Below, piece by piece: positions 2,621-60,757 of a DNA stretch of 64,000 bases (positions are counted from its first letter, which is position 1; the number at the start of each line of letters is the position of its first letter). The stretch lies in sequence record MT446392.1, one strand, 5' to 3'. The notes beneath the pieces are model-generated. The model worked only from the letters and a program-made list of their open reading frames with translations. It did not search any database and was not told where the DNA came from. This DNA is from Escherichia virus TH15. The position numbers and the translations under genes were made by a program.

Positions 2621-2629
2621 GGGTTCTCC

Positions 2630-45162: not shown

Positions 45163-45168
45163 TAAATA
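45161..45168 (+). promoter_or_regulatory. T4-type late promoter TATAAATA on plus strand
   Basis: Exact octamer 27 nt upstream of ATG 45195. Confidence 0.6.
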
Positions 45169-45194
45169 TAACGTACCCATAACTAAGGAAATTT

Positions 45195-45749
45195 ATGAAA
45201 CTTTTAAAATATCTAAGCTGGATTCTGTTAGTGCCACTGGATTTCATTTCAATGATTCTGGCTGTTATCCTTGCACCATTTGTAGTGCCGTTCCATAACA
45301 AAAAGACTGGTAAGCTTCCGTTCGGATTTGACTGGATGATGACATACGATAATCCAATTGATGGTGACCGTGGTCATGTTAAACGTTGGGAAAAAATCAG
45401 AAAATGGCCGTTAGGTGTTTACTTCCAGCGAGTGGCCTGGCTCTGGCGAAATAAAGCCTACAATTTTGCTTATCATAAGCTGGGTCGCGATTGCGATTCT
45501 AAATTCCATTATAAAGGTAATCCTGATGTTGAATCGGGCTCCCCGGATAAAGCTCACCATGGCTGGCTCTGGATGTGGAATGATAATGCATGGGGCGTGT
45601 TCGCTTCCGTACCTTATCTTAAAGTTGGTGGAATCACCTTTTATCTGCGCGTGTATTGCGGTTGGAAGCTCAAAAGTCTTCTGTCCCGTCCTATCCCGAA
45701 AGCTATGTTAGCCTTTCATATCAATCCCTTCCGTTTTTATAAGAACTAA
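45195..45749 (+). CDS. hypothetical membrane-anchored Trp-rich protein, apparently late-expressed
   Basis: 184 aa; N-terminal hydrophobic segment; late promoter upstream; terminator downstream. Confidence 0.55.
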   Translation: MKLLKYLSWILLVPLDFISMILAVILAPFVVPFHNKKTGKLPFGFDWMMTYDNPIDGDRGHVKRWEKIRKWPLGVYFQRVAWLWRNKAYNFAYHKLGRDCDSKFHYKGNPDVESGSPDKAHHGWLWMWNDNAWGVFASVPYLKVGGITFYLRVYCGWKLKSLLSRPIPKAMLAFHINPFRFYKN

Positions 45750-45754
45750 TCGAA

Positions 45755-45778
45755 CCCGCTCCGGCGGGTTTATTTTTA
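45755..45778 (+). terminator. intrinsic terminator (ACCCGC-tccg-GCGGGT plus T-run)
   Basis: Read directly. Confidence 0.6.
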
Positions 45779-45796
45779 ATATTTCTTCAAAAAGTA

Positions 45797-45826
45797 GTGT
45801 ACATCCGGATTGACCGGGTGCATAAT
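45797..45826 (+). promoter_or_regulatory. early promoter GTGTAC / CATAAT
   Basis: 18-nt spacer; leader CCATACTGAGTTAC shared with 46345 and 46876. Confidence 0.45.
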
Positions 45827-45876
45827 GATTCCATACTGAGTTACACACTGAATCACAAAAACTTTGGAGAAATAAA

Positions 45877-46302
45877 ATGAACTTTCTGACCCTGACCTCT
45901 GCATTCTCTGTTACCCGCATCACTAACAAAATGGTTGCTGATGAAGTATGTGAAATCTGCATTCGTGAAGATGCACTTATCCATCTGACTTCAACCCAAA
46001 TTGTTGCCATCGCCAAGTCCCTTAATTCTGAACTGAAGGTAAACACCAAACAGTCAAAAGAATCCATCATTGAATTAATCCAAGCTGAAATGATTGAATT
46101 CCCAATTGAAGAAGTTAAAGAAGAAAAAATCCAGTCCAAATCTGGTAACGCCCGTGACATTTGCTTCCAGGCATTTGCAGAAATTGATATGAATGATAAT
46201 GCAGCTCGTCGCGCTCTGATTGATGACCTGGTTACTACCCATGATATCAAAAAGACTGTTGTTCAGTCTTATGCTTCCAACTTCCGCAAAGCTCAAAAAT
46301 AA
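45877..46302 (+). CDS. hypothetical protein, paralog of 46386-46829 (shared C-terminal motif QSYASNFRK)
   Basis: 141 aa. Confidence 0.55.
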   Translation: MNFLTLTSAFSVTRITNKMVADEVCEICIREDALIHLTSTQIVAIAKSLNSELKVNTKQSKESIIELIQAEMIEFPIEEVKEEKIQSKSGNARDICFQAFAEIDMNDNAARRALIDDLVTTHDIKKTVVQSYASNFRKAQK

Positions 46303-46313
46303 TTGAGAAAAGT

Positions 46314-46350
46314 GTTTTACTTCCAAGTGGGATAGTGTATAATTATCCCA
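46314..46350 (+). promoter_or_regulatory. early promoter with TATAAT inside GGGATA/TATCCC inverted repeat (PeSL-like)
   Basis: TATAAT 46338-46343. Confidence 0.5.
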
Positions 46351-46385
46351 TACTGAGTTACCAAATAAACAAACGGGATAATAAA

Positions 46386-46829
46386 ATGAAAACTTCAAAA
46401 CTGGTTAAGTACGTTAAACTGGCATTAAACAACTCTTCTGAAGCTGAAGCGCAATCCGCAGCGCGTATGTTCTTCAAACGTCTGACAGCTGAAGGTATTT
46501 CATTTAACCCGGCAGTATTTGGTATCACTCGTGGCGAAGCTGCTAAACTGGCAACTCTGGCAGGTAAAATTTTTAAAGGTCTGAATGATGGACAGGTTAA
46601 ACCAGAAGTTAAACCTACTCCTAAAGCTGAACCAAAAGCTGAGTGTAAGGCACCTAAACGCTCCGGTATGAGCAACAAAGATTTATGCTATGATATGTTC
46701 AAAACTGTTAATATGTCTAATGGTGCTGCTCGCAGAGCTGTTATTGATATGATTGTGCGTGAGTTTGGATTCAACAAAGCATCAGTTCAATCTTATGCTT
46801 CCAACTTCCGCAAAGAATTTGAAATTTAA
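46386..46829 (+). CDS. hypothetical protein, paralog of 45877-46302
   Basis: 147 aa from ATG 46386; C-terminus ...ASVQSYASNFRKEFEI. Confidence 0.55.
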   Translation: MKTSKLVKYVKLALNNSSEAEAQSAARMFFKRLTAEGISFNPAVFGITRGEAAKLATLAGKIFKGLNDGQVKPEVKPTPKAEPKAECKAPKRSGMSNKDLCYDMFKTVNMSNGAARRAVIDMIVREFGFNKASVQSYASNFRKEFEI

Positions 46830-46841
46830 TTCAAAAAGGGG

Positions 46842-46871
46842 GTATACAAGCCCCCTGCTTTAAGGCATAAT
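46842..46871 (+). promoter_or_regulatory. early promoter GTATAC / CATAAT overlapping a G5/C5 hairpin
   Basis: Read directly. Confidence 0.4.
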
Positions 46872-46910
46872 GATTCCATACTGAGTTACCAAATAAAACT
46901 GGAGAATAAA

Positions 46911-47216
46911 ATGAAATTCATCATCAACCTGGCGCTTGTTGACTTTGATAAAACTGGTAATTTCGCATCTGCTGAAAATATGATTCGCAACACTAAGTTC
47001 AAAGTGCAAGTCCAGCAGGCGGTAGCAAAAGAGTTCTTTACTGATAAATTAACCCACGTTGTCAATCACCTGAATGTGCAAGTTAAATTCACTCGTAAAG
47101 CAGAAACTACAGTTGAATTTGATTTTGAATGTCGTTACCATGATGAATATGTTCGCCGCATCCTTAATATTGTATCTGATGAACTTTACTATGGTGTGCA
47201 GGAAAACAAAATCTAA
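46911..47216 (+). CDS. hypothetical protein
   Basis: 101 aa. Confidence 0.5.
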   Translation: MKFIINLALVDFDKTGNFASAENMIRNTKFKVQVQQAVAKEFFTDKLTHVVNHLNVQVKFTRKAETTVEFDFECRYHDEYVRRILNIVSDELYYGVQENKI

Positions 47217-47220
47217 ATCA

Positions 47221-47256
47221 GTGTACGCTTTAACGGGAACATGATAGTATGTTCCC
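47221..47256 (+). promoter_or_regulatory. early promoter GTGTAC / TAGTAT with -10 inside 8-bp inverted repeat GGGAACAT/ATGTTCCC
   Basis: Read directly. Confidence 0.45.
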
Positions 47257-47292
47257 TGGATAATAAAACATTAACCAACTGAAGGAAATACC

Positions 47293-47886
47293 ATGAATAC
47301 TTTAAAGAAACTTGTTGAATTCATCCGCTCCAAACTGGGTACTGCAATGGCACAAAACCTGTCTATTGAAGACCAATATACTAAAGCGGCAACAACCCTG
47401 ATTGACAAGATTACTGAGCTCCAGACTGCCCACGTTAAGTCTGTTAATGAAGAAAAACGCATCCGCGAGTTAGCGAATGAAAAAGACCAGCTCGCTGCTT
47501 CAAAAGAGCGTGAAATCCGTAAACTGATTGCTGATGGTGCTGATGTTCAGGTCCATGCTAAACTAGGTCTCCTGTATCGCCACACGGCTAAACAACTTCG
47601 TAAGAAGGCAGATGATTATGTTGAAATGCGTAATGAAATTAAATTGAAAGTTAAAGAGCTGGATGATTCTCGTCAGGAACTAGCTGTTAAACTGGAATAC
47701 ATCCGCGAAACTCGTAAGGTATCTGCCCTGGGTATTGCGACTGCAGATGATGTTGTTGAAATCGCTGCATTGACTAAGATTGATATTGAAGACACTCTGA
47801 TGCGTGTTGAAACCTTCAAAGGCCCACAGGTTGGTGTGGATACCACATCCGCTGACATTGAAGAATACATCAATTCACTTAAGTAA
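47293..47886 (+). CDS. hypothetical coiled-coil protein
   Basis: 197 aa, charged heptad-rich. Confidence 0.55.
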
Positions 47887-47929
47887 GATAAAAGGGGGCT
47901 TTGCCCCCTAATTGGGAGAGGAGAATATT

Positions 47930-48484
47930 ATGACTTCATACGATAATCTTATATCAAATGTAGAATGGTTTGGCGGCAGTGGTCTTGCCACTGAAACTAA
48001 TACAGTTCTTTATAGAATCCGTGGTGACCTAGGTTATTCCAATGATTTCTTAAGAAGAACAACTAGTCGGGGCGATACTACCAAATTACCTTTTATTTTT
48101 GCTTTGGCTGAAGACCTTTCTTTCGCAGATGCCTTGGAAATTATTGACGTGAATCTGGGCATTCAACGAGTGGAATTCGCTGGACTACGTTATTCAGTGT
48201 ATGCATTAAACGACCCTAGCGATTATAGACAACTTATTGATGCAGACGATGATTATCATTTAGTGTGTTATTTGATGTTAGAAAATGGTGACCACTTTGG
48301 AATGGTTGACCGCCGTCCAACTTACTCTGATATTAAAAATTATGATAAAGATGAGCTTACTATTTTGGCTGCTGAGTATACATCAGAGAGTCGTAAGCAA
48401 CAACGGAAGCTTAATCGTTTTATTACTGAATGTCGTGAATATGCTAAAGGGGTTCAAAATGCGAACGCTATATCTGCCAAGTAA
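47930..48484 (+). CDS. hypothetical protein with C-terminal F-I-x-E-C motif
   Basis: 184 aa from ATG 47930, SD GGGAGAGGAG. Confidence 0.5.
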   Translation: MTSYDNLISNVEWFGGSGLATETNTVLYRIRGDLGYSNDFLRRTTSRGDTTKLPFIFALAEDLSFADALEIIDVNLGIQRVEFAGLRYSVYALNDPSDYRQLIDADDDYHLVCYLMLENGDHFGMVDRRPTYSDIKNYDKDELTILAAEYTSESRKQQRKLNRFITECREYAKGVQNANAISAK

Positions 48485-48818
48485 ACCAGAAAAATTTGTA
48501 TACGCGGACAAGATTGATAAAGACCTTATGCCTCCATTTGGAGCTTTGTCCATGTGCATCGTTGGGGTTATAATGATGGTGCTTTGTGGGGATATGGATA
48601 TCATTAGTGTCGGAGTCGCCTGGACACTAATAATCGCAACTCCTTTTATTACAGTCCTGAGTATGATTTTGATAAATGTGTGGCATCAAAATCATATGAA
48701 TAAAGGATATCGTGGACGAGTTAAAGAGTGGGAACAAAAATGTGTTTCCCTACAAAAAGAGCACAAAATTAAATGTGCAGAAGAATTTATCAAGGAGGTT
48801 CGCAATGGAACGGCCTAG
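48459..48818 (+). CDS. small membrane protein (F-I-K-E motif at C-terminus)
   Basis: 119 aa from ATG 48459; hydrophobic helices. Confidence 0.5.
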   Translation: MRTLYLPSKPEKFVYADKIDKDLMPPFGALSMCIVGVIMMVLCGDMDIISVGVAWTLIIATPFITVLSMILINVWHQNHMNKGYRGRVKEWEQKCVSLQKEHKIKCAEEFIKEVRNGTA

Positions 48819-49158
48819 TCTTGCACTACATGTTTATCAATTGGCTGAATATGATATTGGTGCCAATTTATTATTAGGGATTGTTACCGCTATGCTCGGG
48901 GGCTTGGTTGGCCTGGTAATGACCACAGTTATGGCTGCAATCGAGGGAGTCATGCCTATTGAGATGGGCTTCTTTATGATAATTGCTCCGGCTGTTGTAG
49001 CCTATTTTATCCCGGTTGTGTATGATATCTGTCACACAAACACCTTGAATGCTCCCATCCGTAAGAGATACGCTTTGGCAATGGCTGAGTATAATAAGTT
49101 CCTGGACAAAACAAAACGTAATGAACTTGAAACCTTTATTAAGGAATGTAAATCATGA
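48805..49158 (+). CDS. small membrane protein ending FIKECKS
   Basis: 117 aa from ATG 48805, SD AAGGAGG. Confidence 0.5.
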   Translation: MERPSLALHVYQLAEYDIGANLLLGIVTAMLGGLVGLVMTTVMAAIEGVMPIEMGFFMIIAPAVVAYFIPVVYDICHTNTLNAPIRKRYALAMAEYNKFLDKTKRNELETFIKECKS

Positions 49159-49445
49159 ATAAAATTGAAATCGCTATCCCTAAGTATTATGATGAGAAAT
49201 CTGCAGAAAAAGCTATCTATTCTCTTCTAAATAAGACTTCTGAAATTGAAACACATTGTGAAGAAATCGCTGATGAATATGGCATTGAATTCAGCACCGG
49301 CGATTACGGCACAGGTCGTACATACCACCCAGTCGGTTATGAATGCTCTGAATGGTTTACCCATCATATTGAAGCCAATGGCGGTCGGGTTGAAAATGGT
49401 GTTGTTACCGTTGGTGCTTGGGTCTCCTCTTCTGAGATGTGTTAA
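49155..49445 (+). CDS. small acidic protein, member 1 of tandem W-x-SS-x-x-C family (ends WVSSSEMC)
   Basis: 96 aa. Confidence 0.55.
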   Translation: MNKIEIAIPKYYDEKSAEKAIYSLLNKTSEIETHCEEIADEYGIEFSTGDYGTGRTYHPVGYECSEWFTHHIEANGGRVENGVVTVGAWVSSSEMC

Positions 49446-49454
49446 GGAAATGGT

Positions 49455-49736
49455 ATGATGAACGATTACAGTAAAAATAAAGAACTGGCCAACGCAGTAA
49501 ACGAAATCCATAAAGCTATTCGGCGCGCCGAGGAAATTGCAGACAAATATGAGACTCATTTTAATATATACCCTGCTCGCGGTATGGGCGGTGACTATTA
49601 TTCTCCTGGCGCCTTGAAAGCTGACCTTGCTCATTGGGAAAACTACGGTGAAGCCCAATACGCCATTGTTAACCAACATGACTACACAACGGACCTTGAA
49701 AAAGGTGGTTGGGTTTCCTCTTCTTCTGAATGTTAA
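49455..49736 (+). CDS. small acidic protein, family member 2 (ends WVSSSSEC)
   Basis: 93 aa. Confidence 0.55.
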   Translation: MMNDYSKNKELANAVNEIHKAIRRAEEIADKYETHFNIYPARGMGGDYYSPGALKADLAHWENYGEAQYAIVNQHDYTTDLEKGGWVSSSSEC

Positions 49737-49744
49737 GGAATTAT

Positions 49745-49942
49745 ATGTCCCGTGAATTAGATTGTGCAATCCGTACTGCTGCGGCAGCTATTGAAAACGT
49801 TATCCAGATTTGCAAAGAAGAACGCGAAGAAGCTGATATCTATATTGACGGTCAGCGTAATCTGGAACAACATATTACGCTTTATAATGGTTGTATTACT
49901 ATTAGTGGTACCTCTTGGGTGTCCTCCTCTTACGAATGCTAA
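49745..49942 (+). CDS. small acidic protein, family member 3 (ends WVSSSYEC)
   Basis: 65 aa from ATG 49745 with SD TAAGGAA. Confidence 0.5.
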   Translation: MSRELDCAIRTAAAAIENVIQICKEEREEADIYIDGQRNLEQHITLYNGCITISGTSWVSSSYEC

Positions 49943-49950
49943 GGAAATAA

Positions 49951-50178
49951 ATGACTACTAAAACTGTTAAAGAAATTGAAGACCAAATCCGTGCACTAAT
50001 CTGTGAAGGTGAACAGCTGGCCGATAAAACTGGTGAATACTTTCATGTATATGCTGACAGTCTTCAACGATATATTCCTGCGGGCTGTCCAGAATATGAA
50101 GAATATGACTGGATTCGCGGTGATTATGGTATCCCAGAAGGTAAAGGTTTCTGGTACACCTCCTCTATGTCTTGCTAA
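49951..50178 (+). CDS. small acidic protein, family member 4 (ends WYTSSMSC)
   Basis: 75 aa. Confidence 0.55.
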   Translation: MTTKTVKEIEDQIRALICEGEQLADKTGEYFHVYADSLQRYIPAGCPEYEEYDWIRGDYGIPEGKGFWYTSSMSC

Positions 50179-50187
50179 GGAATAAAA

Positions 50188-50412
50188 ATGTCTGATATTA
50201 ATGAATTAGAAAAAGCAGCTCTTGAACTGGCTGCGCTGTATAAGAAAGTTAAAGATATGGCTTCTGCTCAAGATTTCGGTATTGAGCTCGATGATTATGA
50301 TGGCGAAGTTCGTCTTGAAGACTGGTTGAACAGCTCTTGTTATGGTGAAGAAGCTGGTCGAACCTTCGTTGCTCACCCGGATGGTAAAATCTGGTACCCG
50401 AGCAGCTGCTAA
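50188..50412 (+). CDS. small acidic protein, family member 5 (ends WYPSSC)
   Basis: 74 aa. Confidence 0.55.
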   Translation: MSDINELEKAALELAALYKKVKDMASAQDFGIELDDYDGEVRLEDWLNSSCYGEEAGRTFVAHPDGKIWYPSSC

Positions 50413-50514
50413 AATTATCACAAGGATGTGATAGGAGGACTTATGCACAAGATTTAGTATACAAGTCTAAAGAAACATAGTATCATTATCTCGTCAACTA
50501 ATGAGGAAATCAAT

Positions 50515-50745
50515 ATGTGGTATTACGCCCCAATGGCTGATGAGCCTGTGAAAATTAGTCGCGCTAAGTTTACAAAGATTTACGGCCTCGTTTATAAGAA
50601 GTCTGATTACGGTGTTCGTTTTGAAGATGCACACTGTATCAACGACCCTTATAATGAAGACCTCTATGGCAAATTGGTTCCTATCGTTAAGGGGTCCGCC
50701 TCTGAGATGATAGATGAATCTAATATCTCTGCTGCTGAAATTTAA
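50515..50745 (+). CDS. hypothetical protein
   Basis: 76 aa. Confidence 0.45.
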   Translation: MWYYAPMADEPVKISRAKFTKIYGLVYKKSDYGVRFEDAHCINDPYNEDLYGKLVPIVKGSASEMIDESNISAAEI

Positions 50746-50763
50746 GTTACTGAGGAAAATATT

Positions 50764-51723
50764 ATGATGTTAGTTATTGGCTCTCGCGCATTACATAACG
50801 CCGGTCTGATTGAAAGTAAGAAAATTGAAAACTCTGATTGGGATTTTATCGCTGACCAGGGTTCCTGGAACAGCTTTAAAACCCAGATGATGGGGCAGCA
50901 TGTTCATGTGGATAACCCAGATGTGCAAGCTTTTAAATGTATGCACAATGGTAAAGAAACTTATTTTGAAGCGTACATCGTCCGCGCACTGACAAGTGTT
51001 CGTGAGTTGACTGATGAGTTGCAAGAGGAAGATTTTACTTCCAGTTATCGTCTGCTCAAATATGCAAAGGCAAATATTCAGAAAGACCGTCTATCTGGTT
51101 TTTACTGGGCGACCCCTGATATTTGTCTGGCAATTAAATTGTCTCATCGTTACCTGAAGAACAATCCATTCTTCCTGAAGACAATGAGCCATATTAATTA
51201 CCTTCGTAATAAGGGTGTTGTTCTTAATGATGAACTACAAAAAATCATGCAACAACGACAGGCAGAAACACTGTCATATAGTCACCCTAAACTAGACGTG
51301 GGCAAGAAAACTTTCTTTAATGATACAATCTATACCCTTGACCATGACTCCATCCACGAGGCCGTGGCGCTTGCTGATAAGCCTGCATATAAGTTCTATA
51401 TGAAGGATGATTCAGAAGTCATGACCTCACGTGAAAAATTTGAAGCACTCCCTGATGTTATTAAACTGGCAGGGGTTTATGAAGAAGCATGTGTGCTCGC
51501 TCTGGAGCGTTCGCAGGTTCCTAACGAGTTTAGTATCCCGGCCAGTCATAGCTTCCATATGGCTCTGGAAAAAGTCTGCACCTCCATTACTTCTGGATGG
51601 TTTCGTGAGTATGCCTGGGAACATTACCAGGATGTGGTTAATATGTACAACACCCTGGGTCGCGAAGACTATGTTAAACGTTTCAAGGCTAACCAGCATT
51701 TAATTCGTCCTTTTTCAAAATAA
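50764..51723 (+). CDS. hypothetical protein (largest uncharacterised early ORF; weak GS...DxD nucleotidyltransferase-like motif near N-terminus)
   Basis: 319 aa; motif VIGSRALH...SDWDFI. Confidence 0.55.
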   Translation: MMLVIGSRALHNAGLIESKKIENSDWDFIADQGSWNSFKTQMMGQHVHVDNPDVQAFKCMHNGKETYFEAYIVRALTSVRELTDELQEEDFTSSYRLLKYAKANIQKDRLSGFYWATPDICLAIKLSHRYLKNNPFFLKTMSHINYLRNKGVVLNDELQKIMQQRQAETLSYSHPKLDVGKKTFFNDTIYTLDHDSIHEAVALADKPAYKFYMKDDSEVMTSREKFEALPDVIKLAGVYEEACVLALERSQVPNEFSIPASHSFHMALEKVCTSITSGWFREYAWEHYQDVVNMYNTLGREDYVKRFKANQHLIRPFSK

Positions 51724-51725
51724 GT

Positions 51726-51755
51726 GTGTACAACCAAATGGGGCTATGACATAAT
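51726..51755 (+). promoter_or_regulatory. early promoter GTGTAC / CATAAT
   Basis: 18-nt spacer. Confidence 0.4.
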
Positions 51756-51782
51756 GGTCCCACAATCAATGAGGAAAATATT

Positions 51783-52469
51783 ATGAACGGTCCTAAAACT
51801 TTTAATAGTCAAGCTCGTGCAGTTGGTGGTTTTGCACATAACGTACAAAATGACCAAATCAAAAATGAACCAATGTTCTTTAACTGTGATTTGAGTTTTG
51901 CTTGGGATAATGGTGGTCCAATCACTCGTAGCTTTATTGCCAATCTCCCAATTGATTGGACTAATCAACATGTTGTGTTTGATTCACGTGCGCATATGTT
52001 AATGCCAGGTTGGTATCCAGCTATCCCTGGCTATCATCATGATGATGTTCCTCGTCCACCCATTCCAACAGGACAACATTTTATTACTGCAGGACAACCT
52101 GATTATGACAATCCTCGCTATTTGTCTGAACACATTCTTGGTCTTGTTAACGCTGATGTGTGCCCTACCCATTTTGCTACAGGCGAAGCCACCTTTAGTG
52201 AAATCCCAGAAGGTGAACTGATTTATCGCCAATGGCATAAAGAAGTTCTGGCTAAAATTGAATCAGGTGAATTAGAGCAATGGGAAGCTCCTGACCGCAC
52301 ACTCCTGCAGTTTAATTGTCATACCTGGCATACTGGTTCCCAGACAGTGCGCAATGGCTGGCGTTGGTTTGGTCGTGTATCTCGTAACACTGACCGTGTT
52401 AAAAATATTACCAATGAAATCCGCGTTAATGCCCAAGTATATCTGGAATTCCCTATGGAGGGATGGTAA
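51783..52469 (+). CDS. hypothetical protein
   Basis: 228 aa. Confidence 0.55.
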   Translation: MNGPKTFNSQARAVGGFAHNVQNDQIKNEPMFFNCDLSFAWDNGGPITRSFIANLPIDWTNQHVVFDSRAHMLMPGWYPAIPGYHHDDVPRPPIPTGQHFITAGQPDYDNPRYLSEHILGLVNADVCPTHFATGEATFSEIPEGELIYRQWHKEVLAKIESGELEQWEAPDRTLLQFNCHTWHTGSQTVRNGWRWFGRVSRNTDRVKNITNEIRVNAQVYLEFPMEGW

Positions 52470-53044
52470 TGATGTATGAACCCGGTTGCATGGGTGATAT
52501 GAAAGGTCCACAAGGATGTGCAGGTATTCCAGTTCCAAGAGATGAATTTATGATTACCAAAAGATATTGGGCAAACCTTGATGATGGTGATGAAGGAATC
52601 AAGGTGGAAAACGTTGATTGGTCGCACTGTAACCGTCATATGAAAGAGCTTTTGATTGAGGAATATAAAATGAAGCACATCGTTAAAGGTTGGCAACCAG
52701 AACCACATAAAGAACAAACACCTGACCCATTGATTTGTTATAGTGAAAAATATGGTTTTCGTACATGGAGCGATGAATATGACAAGTTGGTGTGCTCCAG
52801 GTTCTATGTTTGGATGGGAATACTATTTTTTCCAATCCTGTGGTTTTTCCTGACAACGAAAAATGACTTGCCAATTTGCGTATTCGGGGCAGCAGTATCT
52901 GCGGCCATTGCAGGTATTATCGCATCATTTTTGTGGACCTCTGTTATTGAAGTACCTTTTCGTATTTCTAAAGTTAAAAAGGTATATGACAATATCACAA
53001 AGAAAAATACATTAAACTCTTTTATTGAGGAATGTCGTAAATGA
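52463..53044 (+). CDS. hypothetical membrane protein ending FIEECRK
   Basis: 193 aa; C-terminal hydrophobic helices. Confidence 0.5.
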   Translation: MVMMYEPGCMGDMKGPQGCAGIPVPRDEFMITKRYWANLDDGDEGIKVENVDWSHCNRHMKELLIEEYKMKHIVKGWQPEPHKEQTPDPLICYSEKYGFRTWSDEYDKLVCSRFYVWMGILFFPILWFFLTTKNDLPICVFGAAVSAAIAGIIASFLWTSVIEVPFRISKVKKVYDNITKKNTLNSFIEECRK

Positions 53045-53277
53045 GTATTGCAATTTATATTAAATCAGAGTCATGTGATTCTTACCTGTATTCCTATGAT
53101 AAAGGTACGCCCGAAGTTGAAATCAAAGATGATTTAGAAATTGACCTGGACTTGTTCCGCCCGATTTCTGAATACAGAGTTCAAACTTCTAGTAGTGAAT
53201 CGCCATCAACAGAAACACGTATTGAAATTATTATGGCCGAAATCTTTAAAAAATCTTGGGAACGTGATGATGAGTAA
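53041..53277 (+). CDS. hypothetical small acidic protein
   Basis: 78 aa; ATGA overlap upstream. Confidence 0.4.
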   Translation: MSIAIYIKSESCDSYLYSYDKGTPEVEIKDDLEIDLDLFRPISEYRVQTSSSESPSTETRIEIIMAEIFKKSWERDDE

Positions 53278-53728
53278 GAAAAACGTGGTGAAAGAATTAT
53301 CTGCTGGCATTATTTTCATGACTGAAGATAAAGAGTTATTCATGGGTCGTGTGACTGGTTCTCGCAAACCGGGTATGCCTGCACATAAATGGGATATCCC
53401 TAAGGGTCATGTTGAAGCCGGCGAATCCCCGATTGAAGCGGCTATGCGTGAATGTGAAGAAGAAACAGGCTTTACCCAGTATGACCCGGCATTCTTAAAA
53501 GACCTAGGCGAGTTCCGTTATTCAGATAACAAAAACCTTCACCTGTTTTTGTACACGGTCCCGGTCGAGCATGAGCAATTCAGACATAGTAAATGCTCCG
53601 CATATCATACATTCCCGGATGGTAGTTCGGTCCCAGAGTTTGATGCATTTGCTCTGATTAAACCGAGTCAATGGCAATACGTAATGGGTAAATCGATGTA
53701 TAAGGTTTTGACTCAAATTTTCGGATAA
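53267..53728 (+). CDS. nudE: NudE Nudix hydrolase
   Basis: Nudix box GHVEAGESPIEAAMRECEEETGF; precedes e as T4 e.1/nudE. Confidence 0.8.
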   Translation: MMSKKNVVKELSAGIIFMTEDKELFMGRVTGSRKPGMPAHKWDIPKGHVEAGESPIEAAMRECEEETGFTQYDPAFLKDLGEFRYSDNKNLHLFLYTVPVEHEQFRHSKCSAYHTFPDGSSVPEFDAFALIKPSQWQYVMGKSMYKVLTQIFG

Positions 53729-53739
53729 TAAATACACAT

Positions 53740-54495
53740 ATGAATTATCTAAAAATATATGAATCTTTAATAGTATCTGCTATTAAAAGACCTCTTACAC
53801 AAGGATACACCGAAAAACATCATATTTTACCGAAATCGATGGGTGGTAATGATTCTATTGATAATTTAGTTACCCTTACCGCCCGTGAACATTTTATTGC
53901 ACACTTATTATTGGCAAGAATTTTTAAGAATCGCGAAATGTGGTCCGCTGCATATATGATGGCTTCAACAAGTCTAACTAACTCGGATAGACATAGATGC
54001 TCGTCACATTTATATGAATTATTGCGTAAACAAGCGTCGGTATATAATTCAGGTGAAAATTCTCCAAATTGGGGAATAAAACGTTCTGAAGAAACACGAT
54101 TAAAAATGTCAATTTCAAAAATGGGTATCAGGAATCCAATGTACGGTATTCCACAATGTTTGGAACACTCTCATAAAATTAGCCTTGGTGTTACCGAAGC
54201 TTTTAAAAATCCAGAAATGAAAGAACGCCACCGTCAAAGTGTTTCTGGAGAGAATAATGGGTTTTATGGAAAAAAACATTCCGAAAAAAGTTTGGAAAAA
54301 CAGCGGAATACAAAACGGAAAGGATTTCCTTGGGACAATTATTTGGAATTGTACCCAATTTGGGTTTCATTAAATTGCCCCAAGCATCCAACATTCACAA
54401 ATGAACTTGTTAAATTGGGATACCCCAAAAAGAAGCTTGTTCGAATAGTGGAAGAGTTTAAAAATGAATATATTCGAAATGCTACGCATAGATGA
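53740..54495 (+). CDS. HNH homing endonuclease (Mob-like) with NUMOD3 repeats
   Basis: 251 aa; [34 protein letters not shown] motif; ENSPNWG / NPMYG / [11 protein letters not shown] repeats; overlaps e start by 32 nt. Confidence 0.8.
53740..54495 (+). mobile_element. free-standing HNH homing endonuclease gene inserted between nudE and e
   Basis: Same as CDS. Confidence 0.6.
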
Positions 54496-54952
54496 AGGTT
54501 GTAAATTAGATTTGTATAAAGATACCGAGGGGTACTATACCATTGGTATCGGGCAACTGATAACTAAGAACCCATCGAAAGATGTTGCTCGTGCCGAGCT
54601 CGACAAGCTCATGGGTCGCGTCTGTAATGGTCGCATAACCCAGCACGAAGCTGAAACATTGTTTAACCGTTCGGTCGAAAAAGCTAAAGCCGGAATATTG
54701 AGGCATCCTGTCTTAAAACCTGTTTATGATGTACTGGATGAAGTTCGTCGTTGTGCACTCATTAATATGGTATTCCAGATGGGTGTTGCCGGGGTTGCTG
54801 GTTTTCCTAAGGGACTGCGATTGCTCAAGGCCAAATCGTGGGAAGCTGCTGCTAAGGAACTGGCGGACTCAAGATGGTATAAAGTCCAGACTCCAAACCG
54901 GGCCAAACGAGTTATTGAAACTTTCCGTACTGGAACTTTTGACGCTTATTAG
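54464..54952 (+). CDS. e: endolysin (T4 lysozyme)
   Basis: 162 aa; [12 protein letters not shown]...[13 protein letters not shown]...[12 protein letters not shown]...NRAKRVI.TFRTGT.DAY matches T4 E. Confidence 0.97.
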
Positions 54953-54989
54953 TTTACATCTCCAAACGATAGGGTTATAATGACCCTAT
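54952..54989 (+). promoter_or_regulatory. early promoter GTTTAC / TATAAT with -10 inside inverted repeat ATAGGGT/ACCCTAT
   Basis: Upstream of denV. Confidence 0.5.
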
Positions 54990-55007
54990 CAACTACGGAG
55001 AACAAAC

Positions 55008-55424
55008 ATGACTCGCATTAATTTAACCCTGGTATCTGAACTTGCTGACCAACACCTTATGGCTGAATACCGCGAGCTTCCTCGCGTGTTTGGTGCTGTT
55101 CGTAAGCATGTGCAAAATGGTAAAAAGGTGTCTGACTTTAAAATCCCATCATCTTTTCTTTTAGGAACTGGTCATGTCACCTTCTTTTATGATAAGCTTT
55201 TGTTCCTTAAAAACCGTCATCAAGAACTTATTGCTGAATGTTTAAAGCGAGGGTTTAATATAAAAGATATTTCTACCCAAGATTTAAATGATATTCCTGA
55301 TGAATGGAAGAATGATTATCAACCATCAATCTGGTCAATTGAAATCAGTCAATCCAGACTGAATGAGAAAATTTCTCAAAAGCCTACCTGGTACAAATAC
55401 TATGGGAAAGCTGTGTACGCTTAA
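55008..55424 (+). CDS. denV: DenV endonuclease V (pyrimidine dimer DNA glycosylase)
   Basis: 138 aa; [34 protein letters not shown] matches T4 DenV nearly throughout. Confidence 0.97.
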
Positions 55425-55442
55425 CTAAAAAGGTTGTATAAT
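55413..55442 (+). promoter_or_regulatory. early promoter GTGTAC / TATAAT
   Basis: Overlaps denV 3' end. Confidence 0.45.
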
Positions 55443-55472
55443 GATTTTATCAACCAAACAATGGAATATAAA

Positions 55473-55736
55473 ATGAAAACTTATCAAGAATTTATTACTG
55501 AATCTGCCAAAGCTCCTGCTGGTTCCTTTAAAGTCCGTGCCTTCGCTGGTGATGCTGAAGACTTTGGCTCACTGAAGCGCAACGGTTATTCTTTCTTTGG
55601 TGGTGATGGTAAAGAAATTGTTACCTATGCAAAACGTCGCGAAATCGCATTCGTGGTTGCTGGTAAGAAAGTATCCCCAGAAGATATTGAAGTTGACTTT
55701 GAGACCTTTGGTATTGTTTCTGGCGGTAAAGCTTAA
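55473..55736 (+). CDS. internal-protein-like protein (CTS MKTYQEFITE)
   Basis: 87 aa from ATG 55473. Confidence 0.65.
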   Translation: MKTYQEFITESAKAPAGSFKVRAFAGDAEDFGSLKRNGYSFFGGDGKEIVTYAKRREIAFVVAGKKVSPEDIEVDFETFGIVSGGKA

Positions 55737-55738
55737 CT

Positions 55739-55767
55739 GTTTACTTTATGATGGGATAGTGTATAAT
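55739..55767 (+). promoter_or_regulatory. early promoter GTTTAC-17-TATAAT whose -10 box contains the ATG of the next IP-like ORF
   Basis: GTTTAC 55739-55744, TATAAT 55762-55767. Confidence 0.45.
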
Positions 55768-56065
55768 GTTAACTTATCAAGAATTTATCACAGAAGCCAA
55801 AGTTCCTAAAGCATTTCAAATTGGGGTTCAAGGCAATTTAGACCAACAATATGTTGATGCTATTGTAGCAAGCCTCGGTAAACAAGGGGTGCAAGTGGAT
55901 TTGGTTGATTTTACCAAAGGCAATACTTTTAATATTGTTACATCTAAAGGTTCTTTAGCTAAAGTTAAAAAGGCCTTTGGCGTAGCACAAGCATACGAAA
56001 TCGACCATTCTGAATTCGAAAATAAAGGTCGCCAGAACACAATTAAAGGCTCTGGTTCTTTTTAA
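55766..56065 (+). CDS. internal-protein-like protein (degenerate CTS MLTYQEFITE); expression context unusual
   Basis: 99 aa; only possible ATG lies inside promoter -10. Confidence 0.45.
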   Translation: MLTYQEFITEAKVPKAFQIGVQGNLDQQYVDAIVASLGKQGVQVDLVDFTKGNTFNIVTSKGSLAKVKKAFGVAQAYEIDHSEFENKGRQNTIKGSGSF

Positions 56066-56229
56066 TAAAGGCAAACCGACCCTCTCCTCATGAACGTCGT
56101 GTCCTCTGAGTGATGGACCTTTCCCTACCTGTAATAAGGTCGAGCCCGAGTGCGGTAAGGGGTTTACATTCGGATACATGGATGAATTAATGTGCCAAGG
56201 AATGGCCCCAAAACCTTAAGAGAAACAAT

Positions 56230-56775
56230 ATGAGAACTTTTTTAACTGGACCTTATCTATCCCTGATGAATGCTTTTACCCACCATTCTGATGCTCGAAT
56301 AGAAGAACTTTGTAAGACCGATTGTTATATTCCTCCAATGGAAGTCTTGCTCAAAGAATACTGCACACTCCGTATGGATGGCGGGCGACAATCAGGTAAA
56401 TCTACTGCAGTAACTAATTTTGCTGCTAACTGGATTTATGACGGAGGTACAGTAATTGTCCTGTCTAATACCTCGGCTTATGCAAGAATTTCATCCGATT
56501 CTATCAAAAATGATTTTATTCGTTTTAGCGCGGAAGATATTCGTTACCGGCTTTTCCATGATTCATTACGTAGCTTTATCGGTAATAAAGGTTCTAAATT
56601 CCGTGGCCTTGCGCTTTCACGCGTATTGTATATAATTGATGAACCTATTAAAGCTCCTGATATGGACAAGATTTACGATATCCATATGAAAACTGTACAA
56701 CACTGCTGCCATGCTCATTGTTTTAAAACGGGTGAAACAGTTCGTCCTCAATTTTTTGTGATTGGAATGCAATGA
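56230..56775 (+). CDS. small P-loop NTPase-like protein (Walker A GGRQSGKST, Walker B LYIIDE)
   Basis: 181 aa. Confidence 0.5.
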   Translation: MRTFLTGPYLSLMNAFTHHSDARIEELCKTDCYIPPMEVLLKEYCTLRMDGGRQSGKSTAVTNFAANWIYDGGTVIVLSNTSAYARISSDSIKNDFIRFSAEDIRYRLFHDSLRSFIGNKGSKFRGLALSRVLYIIDEPIKAPDMDKIYDIHMKTVQHCCHAHCFKTGETVRPQFFVIGMQ

Positions 56776-57128
56776 TGAATACTATCGAAGTTTTTGAATA
56801 TTGTTATAGCAGCTCCGCTTGTAATAAAAAGGCCCTCGTAGAAAACTATGAGATATTCCATTTTAAACCTAAACGGTATCGTTTGACTAAAGGTCCATTC
56901 AAGGGACAACAGGTTCTCTGTACCGCACCAAATGAACGTCTGATGAATATCATTCCATATTTCAAAATGGAATTCATTGGCAGACGTTATAAAGGGCTAA
57001 TCACTCAAAGCCTGATGGCTTATGGCTCTGATCCGATTTTGATGGAACAAACCGAATTTAAAAAGTTTTATACAGGTTCAGCCGTTTTAGCTGAACCTAA
57101 AGGCTTTACGGTGGCCCATCATGGCTAA
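56772..57128 (+). CDS. hypothetical protein
   Basis: 118 aa, ATGA overlap. Confidence 0.45.
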   Translation: MMNTIEVFEYCYSSSACNKKALVENYEIFHFKPKRYRLTKGPFKGQQVLCTAPNERLMNIIPYFKMEFIGRRYKGLITQSLMAYGSDPILMEQTEFKKFYTGSAVLAEPKGFTVAHHG

Positions 57129-57339
57129 ATTGATTATCGAAGGTTCTGATGAAGCCTTGAAAAGATTCGTTGAATGGTTTAATGGCCCGGGCGAACAAGA
57201 CTTTCTGGAAGTCTGGGACGGTGGTCAATGGAATGGTAAAGAAATGGTTTACCCAACTACCTATATCTCCGTGCAAGGGTGGACTGACAGACTTCGTTTG
57301 GTAGAATATGATATCGCAACTGGCGAGGAAGTGAAATGA
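57121..57339 (+). CDS. hypothetical protein
   Basis: 72 aa. Confidence 0.45.
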   Translation: MAKLIIEGSDEALKRFVEWFNGPGEQDFLEVWDGGQWNGKEMVYPTTYISVQGWTDRLRLVEYDIATGEEVK

Positions 57340-57599
57340 TTGAAGATATCAAAGGTTACAAGCCACATACCGACGATAAAATCGGTAAAGTGAACGCTAT
57401 TAAAGATGCAGAAGTTCGTCTTGGATTGATGTTTGATGCTCTGATTGAAGAAGCATATATCTTGAAAGAAAATGAAACAGAGCAACAAACCAAAGAAGAT
57501 ATGGATGCAGTGCAGGCTCTTAAGTATGCTAAGCAACATCTAAAAGAAGCCAGCATGTGGGCATGTCGTGCAGTATTTCGACCCGAGGAAAAATACTAA
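57336..57599 (+). CDS. hypothetical protein
   Basis: 87 aa. Confidence 0.45.
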
Positions 57600-57904
57600 T
57601 GGCGCAGATTAATTCTGGTTTTGGTTATGAGTTATCAACCGCTTCTCATCGCCGCATAAATGATTCCAATCCGTTTGGATTCACATCGAAACAGCCAAAA
57701 ATTCAAAGTCTAGACGATTTCCAGGAAGTTATTCGTAAGGCCTTTCAGGACTACGGGAACTATCTTAAAGAAGATTCAAACGACTGTCTTGAAGAAGATG
57801 AAATTGCTTACTACGAGCAACGCCTTGAACAGCTTAAGAATTTGCACGCTGTTCGTGCCGAAGTCTCACAATCATTAAATAAGCTAATTCGTTTTAAAGA
57901 ATAG
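57599..57904 (+). CDS. hypothetical protein (start at ATG overlapping upstream stop)
   Basis: 101 aa. Confidence 0.4.
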
Positions 57905-57940
57905 TGTACAAGCAGGTTGAAATGAGTTATGATTATCCCA
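57904..57940 (+). promoter_or_regulatory. early promoter GTGTAC / TATGAT followed by TATCCCATCAAAC leader
   Basis: Read directly. Confidence 0.4.
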
Positions 57941-57960
57941 TCAAACAAAAGGAGATAATC

Positions 57961-58419
57961 ATGACTACTATCGATTCAAGTGTTTACATTCGCCGCAATA
58001 AACTTCGTCGTATTTTTGAAACGGAGTTCCTCAAAATTAATAATGCTATCAACAAGGCTTGTAAAGAAGCAGGCCTTGAAGCATTCTTCATTAAGTACAG
58101 TCCACACCTGTTGGACCGTGCAATCCAACGTGAAATTGACGAACAATATGTTTTTGACTTGTTTGGAAAAATCACACCACATGTAAAAGAAATTGTTGAA
58201 TTCCTGGAGATGAAACCACTCCCGGAAGTTGAAGCACAAATTGACCCGAATGTGAACTACCGTCCACTTCGTCTGGAAATCACAGACAAGAACCTATGGT
58301 TAGGAATGACAGTTAACCCAGCTCTTCCTGGGAAGTCTCCAACCATGTGTTGTCGTATGGCGTTTGTTAACTCTAATCGTCTGGAAGGAAAAATTAGCAC
58401 AAAAGTGATTTATATCTAA
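57961..58419 (+). CDS. hypothetical protein
   Basis: 152 aa from ATG 57961, SD AAGGAG. Confidence 0.5.
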   Translation: MTTIDSSVYIRRNKLRRIFETEFLKINNAINKACKEAGLEAFFIKYSPHLLDRAIQREIDEQYVFDLFGKITPHVKEIVEFLEMKPLPEVEAQIDPNVNYRPLRLEITDKNLWLGMTVNPALPGKSPTMCCRMAFVNSNRLEGKISTKVIYI

Positions 58420-58429
58420 TGGGGAATTC

Positions 58430-58972
58430 ATGAAAAAAGTAATAGCCACTTTACTATTGACAGTTAGTATGTCTGCCCATAGCGTAGAGCCTACTTTCAG
58501 TAATGAACAGATGGAAAATCTTCAATATGCGTATGCATTTGGAGAACAGTTCCAGAAAAATGGTAAGTACAAAGAAAATCCGCACCAACATAATGGTTTG
58601 GGATATATCATGGCTGGATTAACCTGGCAGGAAAGTTCTGCCGGGGTTAATACAGGATTAAATAAAGATAAGCATCATGCATATGGTATATTCCAAAATT
58701 ATCTTCCAACCGTGCGCGAGCGCGTAAAACAGGTTGGGTGGACAATGACAGATAAAGAAATAATCAAGATGATAAGCAAGAGAGAGAACAGTGCACGCTG
58801 GGCTTATATTGAGCTTTCATACTGGTTGAACATTCACAAGGGGGACATAAGAAAAACACTATCATCATATAACGCAGGGTGGAATGTGAAAGCTGGAAAT
58901 ACGTATGCTTCACAGGTCCTAGAAAAAGCTAACTACTTAAAATCACGAGGCCTATTAAAAACGGTGGATTAA
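58430..58972 (+). CDS. secreted lytic transglycosylase-like (SLT domain) protein with signal peptide
   Basis: 180 aa; N-terminal signal MKKVIATLLLTVSMSAHS; motifs QESS, YGIFQ, SYNAG typical of SLT family. Confidence 0.55.
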   Translation: MKKVIATLLLTVSMSAHSVEPTFSNEQMENLQYAYAFGEQFQKNGKYKENPHQHNGLGYIMAGLTWQESSAGVNTGLNKDKHHAYGIFQNYLPTVRERVKQVGWTMTDKEIIKMISKRENSARWAYIELSYWLNIHKGDIRKTLSSYNAGWNVKAGNTYASQVLEKANYLKSRGLLKTVD

Positions 58973-59332
58973 ATGGTAAGAGTCATAACTTTAGCCATAG
59001 GGTTAGTATTCAGCACGGGAGGAATAGCTTCAGTACAGAGCGATGATAATAATAGCATCATAGAATATGCAACGAGGACGGCCAAAGATTATTGTGCATC
59101 AAGCAATGTGGATTGTGTAATCCAGTTTAGTGCCAAACTCACTGCTGCATATAAAGACGGTCAAAATGATGTTGAACACACTCTTATGAAAAAGAGTATT
59201 TTATCCAACAAATATGAAAAGAAACTATTTGAAATGGATTGTATTCTGTCGAGTGCCAAATATAAAGCGGCCTGCACCAGTATGGTTGACAGGTTAGTCG
59301 ATTCCTATAACAGAGGATTGAACTCTAAATGA
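58973..59332 (+). CDS. small secreted protein (signal peptide, 4 Cys)
   Basis: 119 aa; translationally coupled to upstream gene. Confidence 0.45.
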   Translation: MVRVITLAIGLVFSTGGIASVQSDDNNSIIEYATRTAKDYCASSNVDCVIQFSAKLTAAYKDGQNDVEHTLMKKSILSNKYEKKLFEMDCILSSAKYKAACTSMVDRLVDSYNRGLNSK

Positions 59333-59793
59333 TTGTTAACTATATTAAGGGCGATATTGTCGCCCTTTTTCTCGAAGGAAACATCATAGCTCATGGCTGT
59401 AATTGTTTCCATACAATGGGTTCAGGCGTTGCTGGCCAACTGGCAAAGGCTTACCCAAAAATTTTAGAAATGGATAAGACATCAACTGAATACGGTTCCC
59501 GAGAAAAACTCGGTGATATGTCTATCGTTTTTAAACATAAACCAACTGGATTTGGTATGTGCTATAACCTTTATACCCAGTATGAACCGGGTCCAAATCT
59601 GGATTATGGTGCTTTAGTAAATTGCATGATAGAATTAAATCGACAAGCAGAATCCCTTTTGTTCAAGCCTGTGATTTATATTCCCAGGATTGGATGTGGT
59701 ATTGCAGGTGGTGATTGGGATAAGGTTTCCCGGTTAATTGATATGTTTACTCCTGACATTGATTTGATAGTGGTGGATTATGAGTCAAACTAG
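59329..59793 (+). CDS. TARG1/OARD1-like macro domain protein (ADP-ribose processing)
   Basis: 154 aa; blocks YIKGDIVA, IIAHGCNCFHTMGSGVAGQLAKAY and IPRIGCGIAGGDWDKVSRLIDMF resemble TARG1-type macro domains as remembered. Confidence 0.65.
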   Translation: MIVNYIKGDIVALFLEGNIIAHGCNCFHTMGSGVAGQLAKAYPKILEMDKTSTEYGSREKLGDMSIVFKHKPTGFGMCYNLYTQYEPGPNLDYGALVNCMIELNRQAESLLFKPVIYIPRIGCGIAGGDWDKVSRLIDMFTPDIDLIVVDYESN

Positions 59794-59986
59794 TATTCTT
59801 AAAAATGCTCACTGTGAAAAGTGTAAATGGCCAGTTGTTTTTGCTTTATGCAACGATGAAATGATATGTGATTTTGATTATTGGTGCTATTGTTCTAATA
59901 AAGGGTGTGTGAATCATGCAGGCGCCGGTTTCTATTCCGGGTTTCAACCGTATCCAGACTTTGTAAAACAAGGTGAACCGAAATGA
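59780..59986 (+). CDS. small Cys-rich (putative zinc-binding) protein
   Basis: 68 aa with 8 Cys. Confidence 0.45.
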   Translation: MSQTSILKNAHCEKCKWPVVFALCNDEMICDFDYWCYCSNKGCVNHAGAGFYSGFQPYPDFVKQGEPK

Positions 59987-60168
59987 GTTTAAGTATTAGT
60001 CAGAAAAGTAGATTGTTTGAGCTTATCCATGAGCTTTTGGACGAGCATACGGAAGCGAACGCTTTTTATGATGAATACGGCCCGATAGATGCCGAACATC
60101 AGGAAGAATTTGCTAATCGGTTTGATGAGAAAGAAAACGAATTAATTGCTTATGTGAATACTCTTTAA
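59983..60168 (+). CDS. hypothetical small acidic protein
   Basis: 61 aa. Confidence 0.4.
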   Translation: MSLSISQKSRLFELIHELLDEHTEANAFYDEYGPIDAEHQEEFANRFDEKENELIAYVNTL

Positions 60169-60177
60169 GAAGGTGAT

Positions 60178-60750
60178 ATGGCGAGTTTAATTTATCATTA
60201 CGCAGCAATGAATGCAGGCAAAACAGCTTCATTGCTGACTGCAGCTTATTCCTATAAAGAGCGTGGAATGAGTGTGCTTTTGCTAAAACCTGTTATTGAT
60301 AATCGGGACTCGGAATCTGAAATTAAATCACGTATTGGTATTAGCCAGGAAGCAAACCTGGTAACGGCCGACATGAACCTGTTTGAATTCTATAAATGGG
60401 CCGAGTCTCAAAAGGATATCCATTGTGTCCTGGTTGATGAAGCTCAATTTTTGTTACCAGAGCAAATTGACCAGTTAGCACGAGTGGTTGATAATTACAA
60501 TATCCCCGTTATGTGTTACGGGTTAAGAACAGATTTTCGGGGTCAATTATTTCCCGGTTCAGCCAGACTTCTGGCTATTTCGGATAAACTGGTTGAATTA
60601 AAGGGCGTCTGCCATTGCGGCCGGAAAGCAACCATGACCGCTCGAGTAATCGACGGTGCTGCTGTAAAGGACGGCGAGCAAGTGTTAGTCGGTGGGAATG
60701 AATCGTACGTATCTTTATGCAGGAAACATTGGCTCGAATTGACAAGCTGA
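60178..60750 (+). CDS. tk: thymidine kinase
   Basis: 190 aa; MASLI..YAAMNAGK.ASLL.AA..YKERGMSVL.LKP.ID.RDS matches T4 Tk. Confidence 0.96.
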   Translation: MASLIYHYAAMNAGKTASLLTAAYSYKERGMSVLLLKPVIDNRDSESEIKSRIGISQEANLVTADMNLFEFYKWAESQKDIHCVLVDEAQFLLPEQIDQLARVVDNYNIPVMCYGLRTDFRGQLFPGSARLLAISDKLVELKGVCHCGRKATMTARVIDGAAVKDGEQVLVGGNESYVSLCRKHWLELTS

Positions 60751-60757
60751 GGTCCTT

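Follow-up and report, generated by a model that had tools for sequence, protein, structure and literature searches.

Small phage proteins with an invariant Cys-ended tail are genetically linked to a predicted MenT/AbiEii-like nucleotidyltransferase and may form one module with it

The 64,000-nucleotide stretch of the Escherichia virus TH15 genome analysed here (record MT446392.1; hereafter the window) belongs to a VR7-like T4-type phage (Gaprivervirus), about 90–97% identical to VR25, VR7 and TH55. At 49155–50412 its plus strand carries five consecutive, tightly packed open reading frames (ORFs) of 96, 93, 65, 75 and 74 amino acids (aa), here named W1 to W5, all of which end in W-x-x-S-S, zero or two further residues, a Cys and the stop codon (Table 1). 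We refer to their products as tail-Cys proteins; they represent a family that is widespread in large virulent phages and uncharacterised, and whose genes are linked to that of a 319-aa predicted nucleotidyltransferase, here called the enzyme. All five products are acidic (isoelectric point (pI) 4.27–5.04, net charge −6 to −10). The start codon of W1 overlaps the TGA stop of the e.3-like gene before it, so that translation of W1 is probably coupled to that gene, and the TAAGGAA Shine–Dalgarno site of each next gene overlaps the TAA stop of genes 1–4; together these overlaps suggest a packed and probably translationally coupled five-gene block. The original prediction, a reading of the bare sequence, had assigned a TAAGGAA-type ribosome site to every gene, which is right for genes 2–5, and the site of W1 is an AAGGAA within the 3′ end of the e.3-like gene.

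Table 1. Genes and signals in and around the tail-Cys array of the window
Feature	Coordinates	Strand	Remarks
e.3-like membrane-protein gene	48805–49158	+	directly upstream of W1; VR7 ortholog annotated e.3; blastp match to T4 e.3
W1	49155–49445	+	96 aa; long type; ends WVSSSEMC; carries IADEYG and GDYGTGRTYHP
W2	49455–49736	+	93 aa; long type; ends WVSSSSEC
W3	49745–49942	+	65 aa (70 aa if started from an alternative ATG at 49730); short type; remote member; ends WVSSSYEC
W4	49951–50178	+	75 aa; short type; ends WYTSSMSC
W5	50188–50412	+	74 aa; double-motif type; internal DWLNSSCYGE; terminal WYPSSC, no residue between SS and C
Perfect 8-bp hairpin (AUCACAag..gAUGUGAU region)	50415–50434	+	just 3′ of the array; no T-run after the hairpin
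Sigma-70-like site	50458–50486	+	between the array and the 76-aa gene
76-aa gene	50515–50745	+	phrog_3723; separates array and enzyme gene; lineage-specific; outside the tail-Cys family
319-aa gene	50764–51723	+	DUF7277+DUF7275 protein; predicted MenT/AbiEii-like pol-beta nucleotidyltransferase; conserved partner gene of the tail-Cys family
228-aa gene	51783–52469		phrog_1843; no Pfam match; after the enzyme gene
HNH/NUMOD3 homing-endonuclease gene	53740–54495		inserted between e.2 and nudE

W1–W5 are the sole ORFs in the window with such an ending. In a set of 80 related loci, the strict pattern W..SS.{0,2}C closes 184 ORFs that lie upstream of the enzyme gene and on its strand, and none of approximately 10,000 control ORFs located on the opposite strand, inside the enzyme gene or downstream of it. 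The tail is selected as amino acids, because its Ser, Cys and stop codons vary: in 150 distinct tail DNA segments, every one of the six Ser codons (TCN and AGY) occurs at each of the two invariant Ser positions, TGT and TGC both encode the Cys, and TAA, TGA and TAG all serve as stop codons. Two residues separate the Ser pair from the terminal Cys in 120 of these segments and none in 29. This codon usage rules out a DNA repeat or an artefact of overlapping reading frames, the second of which the original prediction had raised against itself. A portable tag on unrelated bodies was likewise rejected, as longer tail-bearing proteins of 140–170 aa keep the same helix–hairpin–tail unit. Three related loci (L043, L046 and L072; at about 2250–3332) hold arrays with members of 140–150 aa that have an extra N-terminal domain and variant endings, for example WISSSICW, in which a Trp follows the Cys.

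The array itself, with diverged bodies and a retained C-terminal tail, is as originally described, and its description as five paralogs applies in full to three members. Sequence comparison identifies W1, W2 and W4 as firm paralogs (hhalign 99.5–99.7%, E = 1e-23 to 1e-26; W1 against W2, 99.7%; W4 against these two, 99.5–99.6%) and W3 and W5 as remote members that match piecewise, at the N-terminal helix (88–91%) and the tail (47–69%), with values of 90.7% and 68.7% for W3. Both remote members lack the central YGxGxTYYP segment, and the ‘acidic aromatic core’ in which W3 had been equated with the others does not align as proposed. Against the PHROGs collection, W1, W2, W4 and W5 match the phrog_899 profile (E = 2e-22, 1e-21, 2e-15 and 6e-10), whereas W3 falls into a separate family, phrog_4882 (E = 4e-36; phrog_899, 0.19). 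A hidden Markov model (HMM) of the family gave E-values of 1e-26 for W1, 9e-26 for W2, 3e-21 for W4 and 0.0017 for W3. Three architectures recur across phages: a long type with a Gly-rich core (W1 and W2), a short type without it (W3 and W4) and a double-motif type with an internal W-x-x-S-S-C-Y-G-E and a terminal W-x-x-S-S-C (W5), the last also found in Aeromonas, Phapecoctavirus and Xanthomonas phages.

A word-indexed protein search with a single paralog returned close orthologs only, and the wider set came from an alignment query and an exhaustive profile search. The latter, covering 1.84 billion cluster representatives, yielded 60 clusters, all of 71–136 aa and with a domain that reaches the C terminus. 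In a 91-sequence family alignment (median pI 4.4), no member departs from the tail Trp or first Ser, conservation reaches 97–99% at the second Ser and terminal Cys, and 87 of the 91 members are Cys-terminated. The best-conserved parts are the tail and the [IL]-A-D motif at the end of the long helix, and G43, F46 and the YGxGxTYxP loop are also conserved, as are the aromatic residues F46, Y51, Y57 and W89. Only the terminal Cys is conserved among cysteines, which makes the self-contained metal site that had been suggested unlikely. The AlphaFold2 (AF2) model of W1, built on a 31-sequence alignment, has a predicted local distance difference test (pLDDT) of 89.3 and a predicted template modelling score (pTM) of 0.75; it comprises a long helix at residues 14–42, a sheet of five strands and a short helix, and the last strand takes in W-V-S of the tail, which continues after it. 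We read W1–W5 as small, folded, acidic cytoplasmic proteins in which an amphipathic helix at the N terminus is combined with a small beta-sheet and the invariant tail. The family had not been recognised in the original prediction, and our searches of Pfam, NCBIfam, PADLOC and PDB sequences with the small proteins also gave no match; nor did the literature searched hold anything relevant under phrog_899, DUF7275, the RB69 ORF names or phage DUF1814.

The protein collection contains 2041 homologs of the 319-aa enzyme, which is present in 731 phage records. In a 41-sequence alignment, G6 and S7, D25-x-D27 and E69 are invariant, as are K125, H128, K139, H174, D193-H194-D195, H198, C272 and a long C-terminal block. 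The AF2 model (pLDDT 90.6, pTM 0.84) puts the GS pair on strand 2–5/helix 6–12, the DxD on strand 26–31 and E69 on strand 64–73, an arrangement that, on alignment and model together, corresponds to the pol-beta nucleotidyltransferase signature hG[GS], [DE]x[DE] on the next strand and a third carboxylate. The model has a two-lobed nucleotidyltransferase fold similar to MenT structures, and its structural neighbours include MenT1 (score 10.4), ANT(2'') and TglT/MenT3 (8.8 each), MenT4 (8.0), TM1012 and JHP933 (both 7.7) and LnuA (7.4). A Pfam search with E-values up to 10 retrieved DUF7275, DUF7277 and one chance hit only, leaving AbiEii/DUF1814 unmatched; PADLOC gave no match, and MenT was absent from the results of a PDB profile search. 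We therefore call the enzyme MenT/AbiEii-like, as its predicted fold suggests, and not a member of that family, given the lack of a sequence-level match to AbiEii/DUF1814 or any other named family.

The evidence that ties the tail-Cys proteins to this enzyme comes from synteny read in both directions. Starting from the enzyme, we chose 80 IMG/VR loci by the enzyme gene alone (39–97% identity, on contigs of 8–371 kb): 73 of them have between one and seven strict tail ORFs on the enzyme strand, upstream of the enzyme gene, and most of the others have variant tails. In the opposite direction, 29 of the 58 hits to a degenerate DNA pattern of the tail are true in-frame tails, and the enzyme gene lies downstream in all 19 loci with at least 2 kb of downstream DNA. 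RB69 has an array of three members at the same place, upstream of ORF134c. The module neighbours e.3 in Tevenvirinae but nrdD in Aeromonas phage 25, where one long-type and one double-motif member precede ORF057c; in the unrelated Phapecoctavirus phiWec181, three members stand directly upstream of a 312-aa gene. The large genes of these three phages share DUF7277+DUF7275 with the enzyme gene of the window. Members also lie upstream of the enzyme gene in Acinetobacter phage Acj9, and in Xanthomonas phage X1 the order is reversed, a double-motif member directly following the enzyme gene. The pairing survives both relocation and change of lineage. By sequence, the window genes belong to phrog_899 and phrog_4882 (small proteins) and to phrog_2141 or Pfam DUF7277+DUF7275 (enzyme); the corresponding PHROG and Pfam entries carry neither function nor linkage, the searched literature treats neither the families nor their pairing, and the linkage of these families is what is new here. 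In RB69 (locus L005, 4989–5295), the W1 ortholog is split into ORF139c (71 aa, the body) and ORF138c (33 aa, the tail WVSSPALC), which is probably a frameshift that reflects a pseudogene or a sequencing error.

The two sets of genes differ in their rate of change. Divergence among small-protein orthologs is mosaic and outpaces that of the enzyme and flanking genes, so the fast diversification originally noted is borne out; between the window and one related locus (L011), identity is 98% for W2, 61% for W1, 65% for W4 and 84% for the enzyme. This pattern fits an adaptable partner set combined with a conserved catalytic core. Within the enzyme, positions 193, 209 and 279 are D, Y and W in 74 of 79 partner-bearing sequences and are QFR/EFR, NYW and VYR in three independent partner-less lineages. 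A further locus, L032, retains DYW at these positions and has a tRNA cluster in the position of the array, an apparent recent loss of the partner. The covariation is suggestive and no more, and on it D193, Y209 and W279 are candidate partner-contact residues. The cluster in L032 (2615–3567) comprises seven tRNA genes at the exact place of the small-protein array.

The reading that we prefer, and to which we give an even chance, is that the tail-Cys proteins and the 319-aa enzyme are two halves of one module in which the tail docks in the catalytic cleft. The genes and their motif, selection at the protein level, the predicted folds, the nucleotidyltransferase signature and the two-way synteny form its observed basis; to this the reading would add a physical contact between the partners, a function for the tail and a direction of action, the small proteins being inhibitors, adaptors or substrates. 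The nearest model is MenAT1, in which the 68-aa antitoxin MenA1, encoded upstream of MenT1, neutralises the toxin by laying a long helix across its electropositive active-site face, and in which MenT toxins add nucleotides to tRNA 3′ ends (PMC10435456). By analogy, the helix and acidic body of a tail-Cys protein would lie on the enzyme’s substrate face as MenA1 does on MenT1, and the invariant tail would reach into the catalytic cleft, with its Ser hydroxyls or terminal Cys serving as a pseudo-substrate or as a true acceptor of a nucleoside monophosphate (NMP). The small proteins might thereby gate, redirect or receive nucleotidyl transfer by the enzyme, and the diverged bodies of one to seven paralogs could confer different affinities, timing or secondary targets.

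The layout is the same as in MenAT1, with a small-protein gene upstream of a nucleotidyltransferase gene, but a cognate antitoxin of the AbiEi/COG5340 or MenA1 type was not found upstream of the enzyme gene, where the tail-Cys genes lie instead. Unrelated to MenA1 and AbiEi, the phage partners join a small sheet and an invariant Cys-ended tail to their conserved helix, and they come in one to seven copies. Compared with MenAT and AbiE (DUF1814), the phage enzyme is 300–330 aa long with a large, highly conserved extra C-terminal region, and the module resides in virulent phages, whereas MenAT and AbiE are found in bacterial chromosomes or plasmids. HEPN–MNT (HepT–MntA) and GlnD–PII are other pairs in which, as proposed here, a minimal nucleotidyltransferase has a small partner with an invariant hydroxyl-bearing residue; in both of these a Tyr in a folded loop is modified, whereas the phage tails offer Ser-Ser and a C-terminal Cys. 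The small proteins have no homology to HEPN or PII.

Several observations weigh against the two-halves reading. In this lineage, the 76-aa gene, the hairpin and the promoter-like site stand between the array and the enzyme gene, so that co-transcription is not assured. About five of the 80 enzyme loci have no nearby partner, and in one lineage (L056, L057, L062 and L085) no tail ORF lies within 2.6 kb of the enzyme gene; the enzyme can therefore exist alone, as do its distant, shorter homologs in Gordonia phage Toniann and Limnohabitans phage DC31. Neither in sequence nor in fold do the phage small proteins resemble MenA1 or AbiEi, and one to seven paralogs per enzyme would be unusual for an antitoxin. 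Moreover, two of the five AF2 models of W1 reach only about 51 pLDDT, and the residue covariation rests on three independent losses only. The partner-less homologs of Toniann and DC31 adjoin tRNA genes (L147, 4850–6384; L149, 4073–4147). As a general feature, tRNA-gene adjacency was rejected and remains a weak lead: only eight of 87 loci have a tRNA gene within approximately 4 kb.

The original prediction had pointed to a role in host takeover or anti-defence. On this alternative, which we regard as unlikely, the tail-Cys proteins would be stand-alone early factors, for instance acidic nucleic-acid mimics or decoys that act against host tRNA-targeting or AbiE-type toxins, and would adjoin the enzyme gene only through a shared accessory or early cassette. 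They are small and acidic, vary in copy number and show mosaic divergence; they occupy the plastic e.3–e.2 region, which is empty in T4; no late-promoter motif lies nearby on the plus strand; and the hairpin and promoter-like site part them from the enzyme gene. In these respects they resemble the small acidic early inhibitors of T4 such as Arn, and the ORFans of T4-type hyperplastic regions, which are likewise small, acidic and located in a plastic region between conserved genes, but we found no homology to either, and the tail-Cys family has a fixed enzyme partner. Chance co-location does not explain a two-way linkage that recurs in unrelated lineages at differing genome positions, and conservation is highest at the W, S, S and C of the tail and in the glycine-rich loops rather than at acidic positions. 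The absence of a PADLOC match counts against such factors as well, although it is a weak test, that library being one of defence rather than anti-defence proteins. None of the findings demonstrates a takeover or anti-defence role, and the linkage, which the original prediction did not note, points to an array that is one of the two halves of a conserved module and does not diversify on its own.

Closer to the two-halves reading, and about as unlikely as stand-alone factors, is the possibility that the tail-Cys proteins are true substrates: the enzyme would attach an NMP to a tail Ser or to the terminal Cys, much as GlnD does with PII or MntA with HepT, and the conjugates would be the active species. 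This alternative is compatible with all the findings and differs from the reading that we prefer in outcome only. It would account for invariant tail hydroxyl and thiol residues under selection at the amino-acid level and for several tandem ‘precursor-like’ genes ahead of one enzyme gene. The O-nucleotidylyltransferases ANT(2'') and LnuA are among the enzyme’s structural neighbours, and pol-beta nucleotidyltransferases such as GlnD, GlnE and MntA modify proteins. Yet the closest structural relatives act on tRNA 3′ ends, and the variable spacing of zero or two residues between the Ser pair and the Cys sits poorly with a single rigid acceptor geometry. That the tail-Cys proteins act as sponges or carriers, binding a nucleotide or some other small molecule that the enzyme uses or produces by way of the YGxGxTYYP loop, the aromatic residues and the SSS tail, is quite improbable. 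The Gly-rich loops and the aromatics listed above are conserved, and known phage nucleotide sponges are about the same size as the tail-Cys proteins, but short and double-motif members keep both the tail and the linkage without the Gly-rich core, and no known sponge or nucleotide-binding domain matches the family in fold. Least likely of all, and very doubtful, are precursors resembling those of ribosomally synthesised and post-translationally modified peptides, whose Ser/Cys-rich tail would be processed into a small natural product. Tandem short genes, Ser and Cys in a conserved terminal segment and an adjacent enzyme gene recall such a pathway; the proteins are, however, predicted to be folded (pLDDT 89 for W1), the conserved part includes the body helix, unlike a leader/core layout, and the neighbouring genes encode the nucleotidyltransferase, proteins of unknown function and membrane proteins, with no protease, dehydratase, cyclase or exporter gene nearby.

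MenT and AbiEii nucleotidyltransferases are known from bacteria as toxins, which extend tRNA 3′ ends and so block translation; AbiE acts as an abortive-infection defence. A distant structural relative of these proteins is conserved in more than 700 phage genomes and genetically tied to the tail-Cys family, which suggests that phages themselves use this enzyme class, with a new kind of protein partner, and brings two sets of ‘hypothetical’ genes together as one candidate two-component system. Should the tail serve for docking or as an acceptor, it would represent a new way to regulate or modify proteins through a nucleotidyltransferase, and the module would be a candidate means by which phages control host tRNA or tRNA-based immunity. 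More speculatively, and with a rather low chance of proving correct, the pair might constitute a phage protein-nucleotidylylation system, in which the MenT-like enzyme loads nucleotides on the Ser-Ser-Cys tails, or in which the small proteins retarget the enzyme to host tRNAs or proteins; it would then be a tunable phage tool to reprogram host translation or neutralise tRNA-directed immunity.

The gene order around the array is tRNA-Met/Arg, e.6-like, e.4/e.3, array, 76-aa gene and 319-aa gene, continuing with the 228-aa gene, e.2, the HNH endonuclease gene, nudE and e. In T4, e.3 and e.2 are adjacent and the interval between them is empty. A six-frame scan of the whole T4 genome with the family, W3, W5 and enzyme HMMs found no member (best E = 0.05–0.5), and no ORF of the complete T4 genome ends in the tail motif. 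T4 is thus without both tail-Cys and enzyme genes, which excludes a characterised T4 gene family as the source of the array, the other outcome that the original prediction had set against itself. The 76-aa gene is present in only 13 related loci. We considered the 228-aa gene as a third member of the module and rejected it, as it co-occurs only within T4-type phages (25 loci) and in no other lineage.

Expression of the array is likely to be early or middle, because the plus strand carries no T4-type late promoter motif from 45168 to 61029 and because the block is early in T4. The T4 late-promoter motif TATAAATA occurs 19 times in the window against 5.4 expected, with 14 minus-strand copies in the first 29 kb (3985–29080) and five plus-strand copies after 38 kb (38369–61036), a distribution that reflects the strand switch between the late structural block and the array region. 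Because the hairpin and the sigma-70-like site intervene, array and enzyme gene may be transcribed separately in this lineage; the fold z-score of the whole spacer from the array to the next gene is only −1.0, and the function of the hairpin is uncertain.

Two further features of the region were recorded. VR7 has no gene of similar size at the place where the HNH/NUMOD3 gene is inserted. A second local set of paralogs, at 47912–48484, 48805–49158 and 52463–53044, consists of two membrane proteins (e.3-like and e.2-like) and one protein of 190 aa; these share N-x-L-x-x-F-I-x-E-C-[KR] at or near the C terminus (RNELETFIKECKS, KNTLNSFIEECRK and RKLNRFITECREY) and match phrog_2203, ‘membrane protein’, with strengths from weak to strong.

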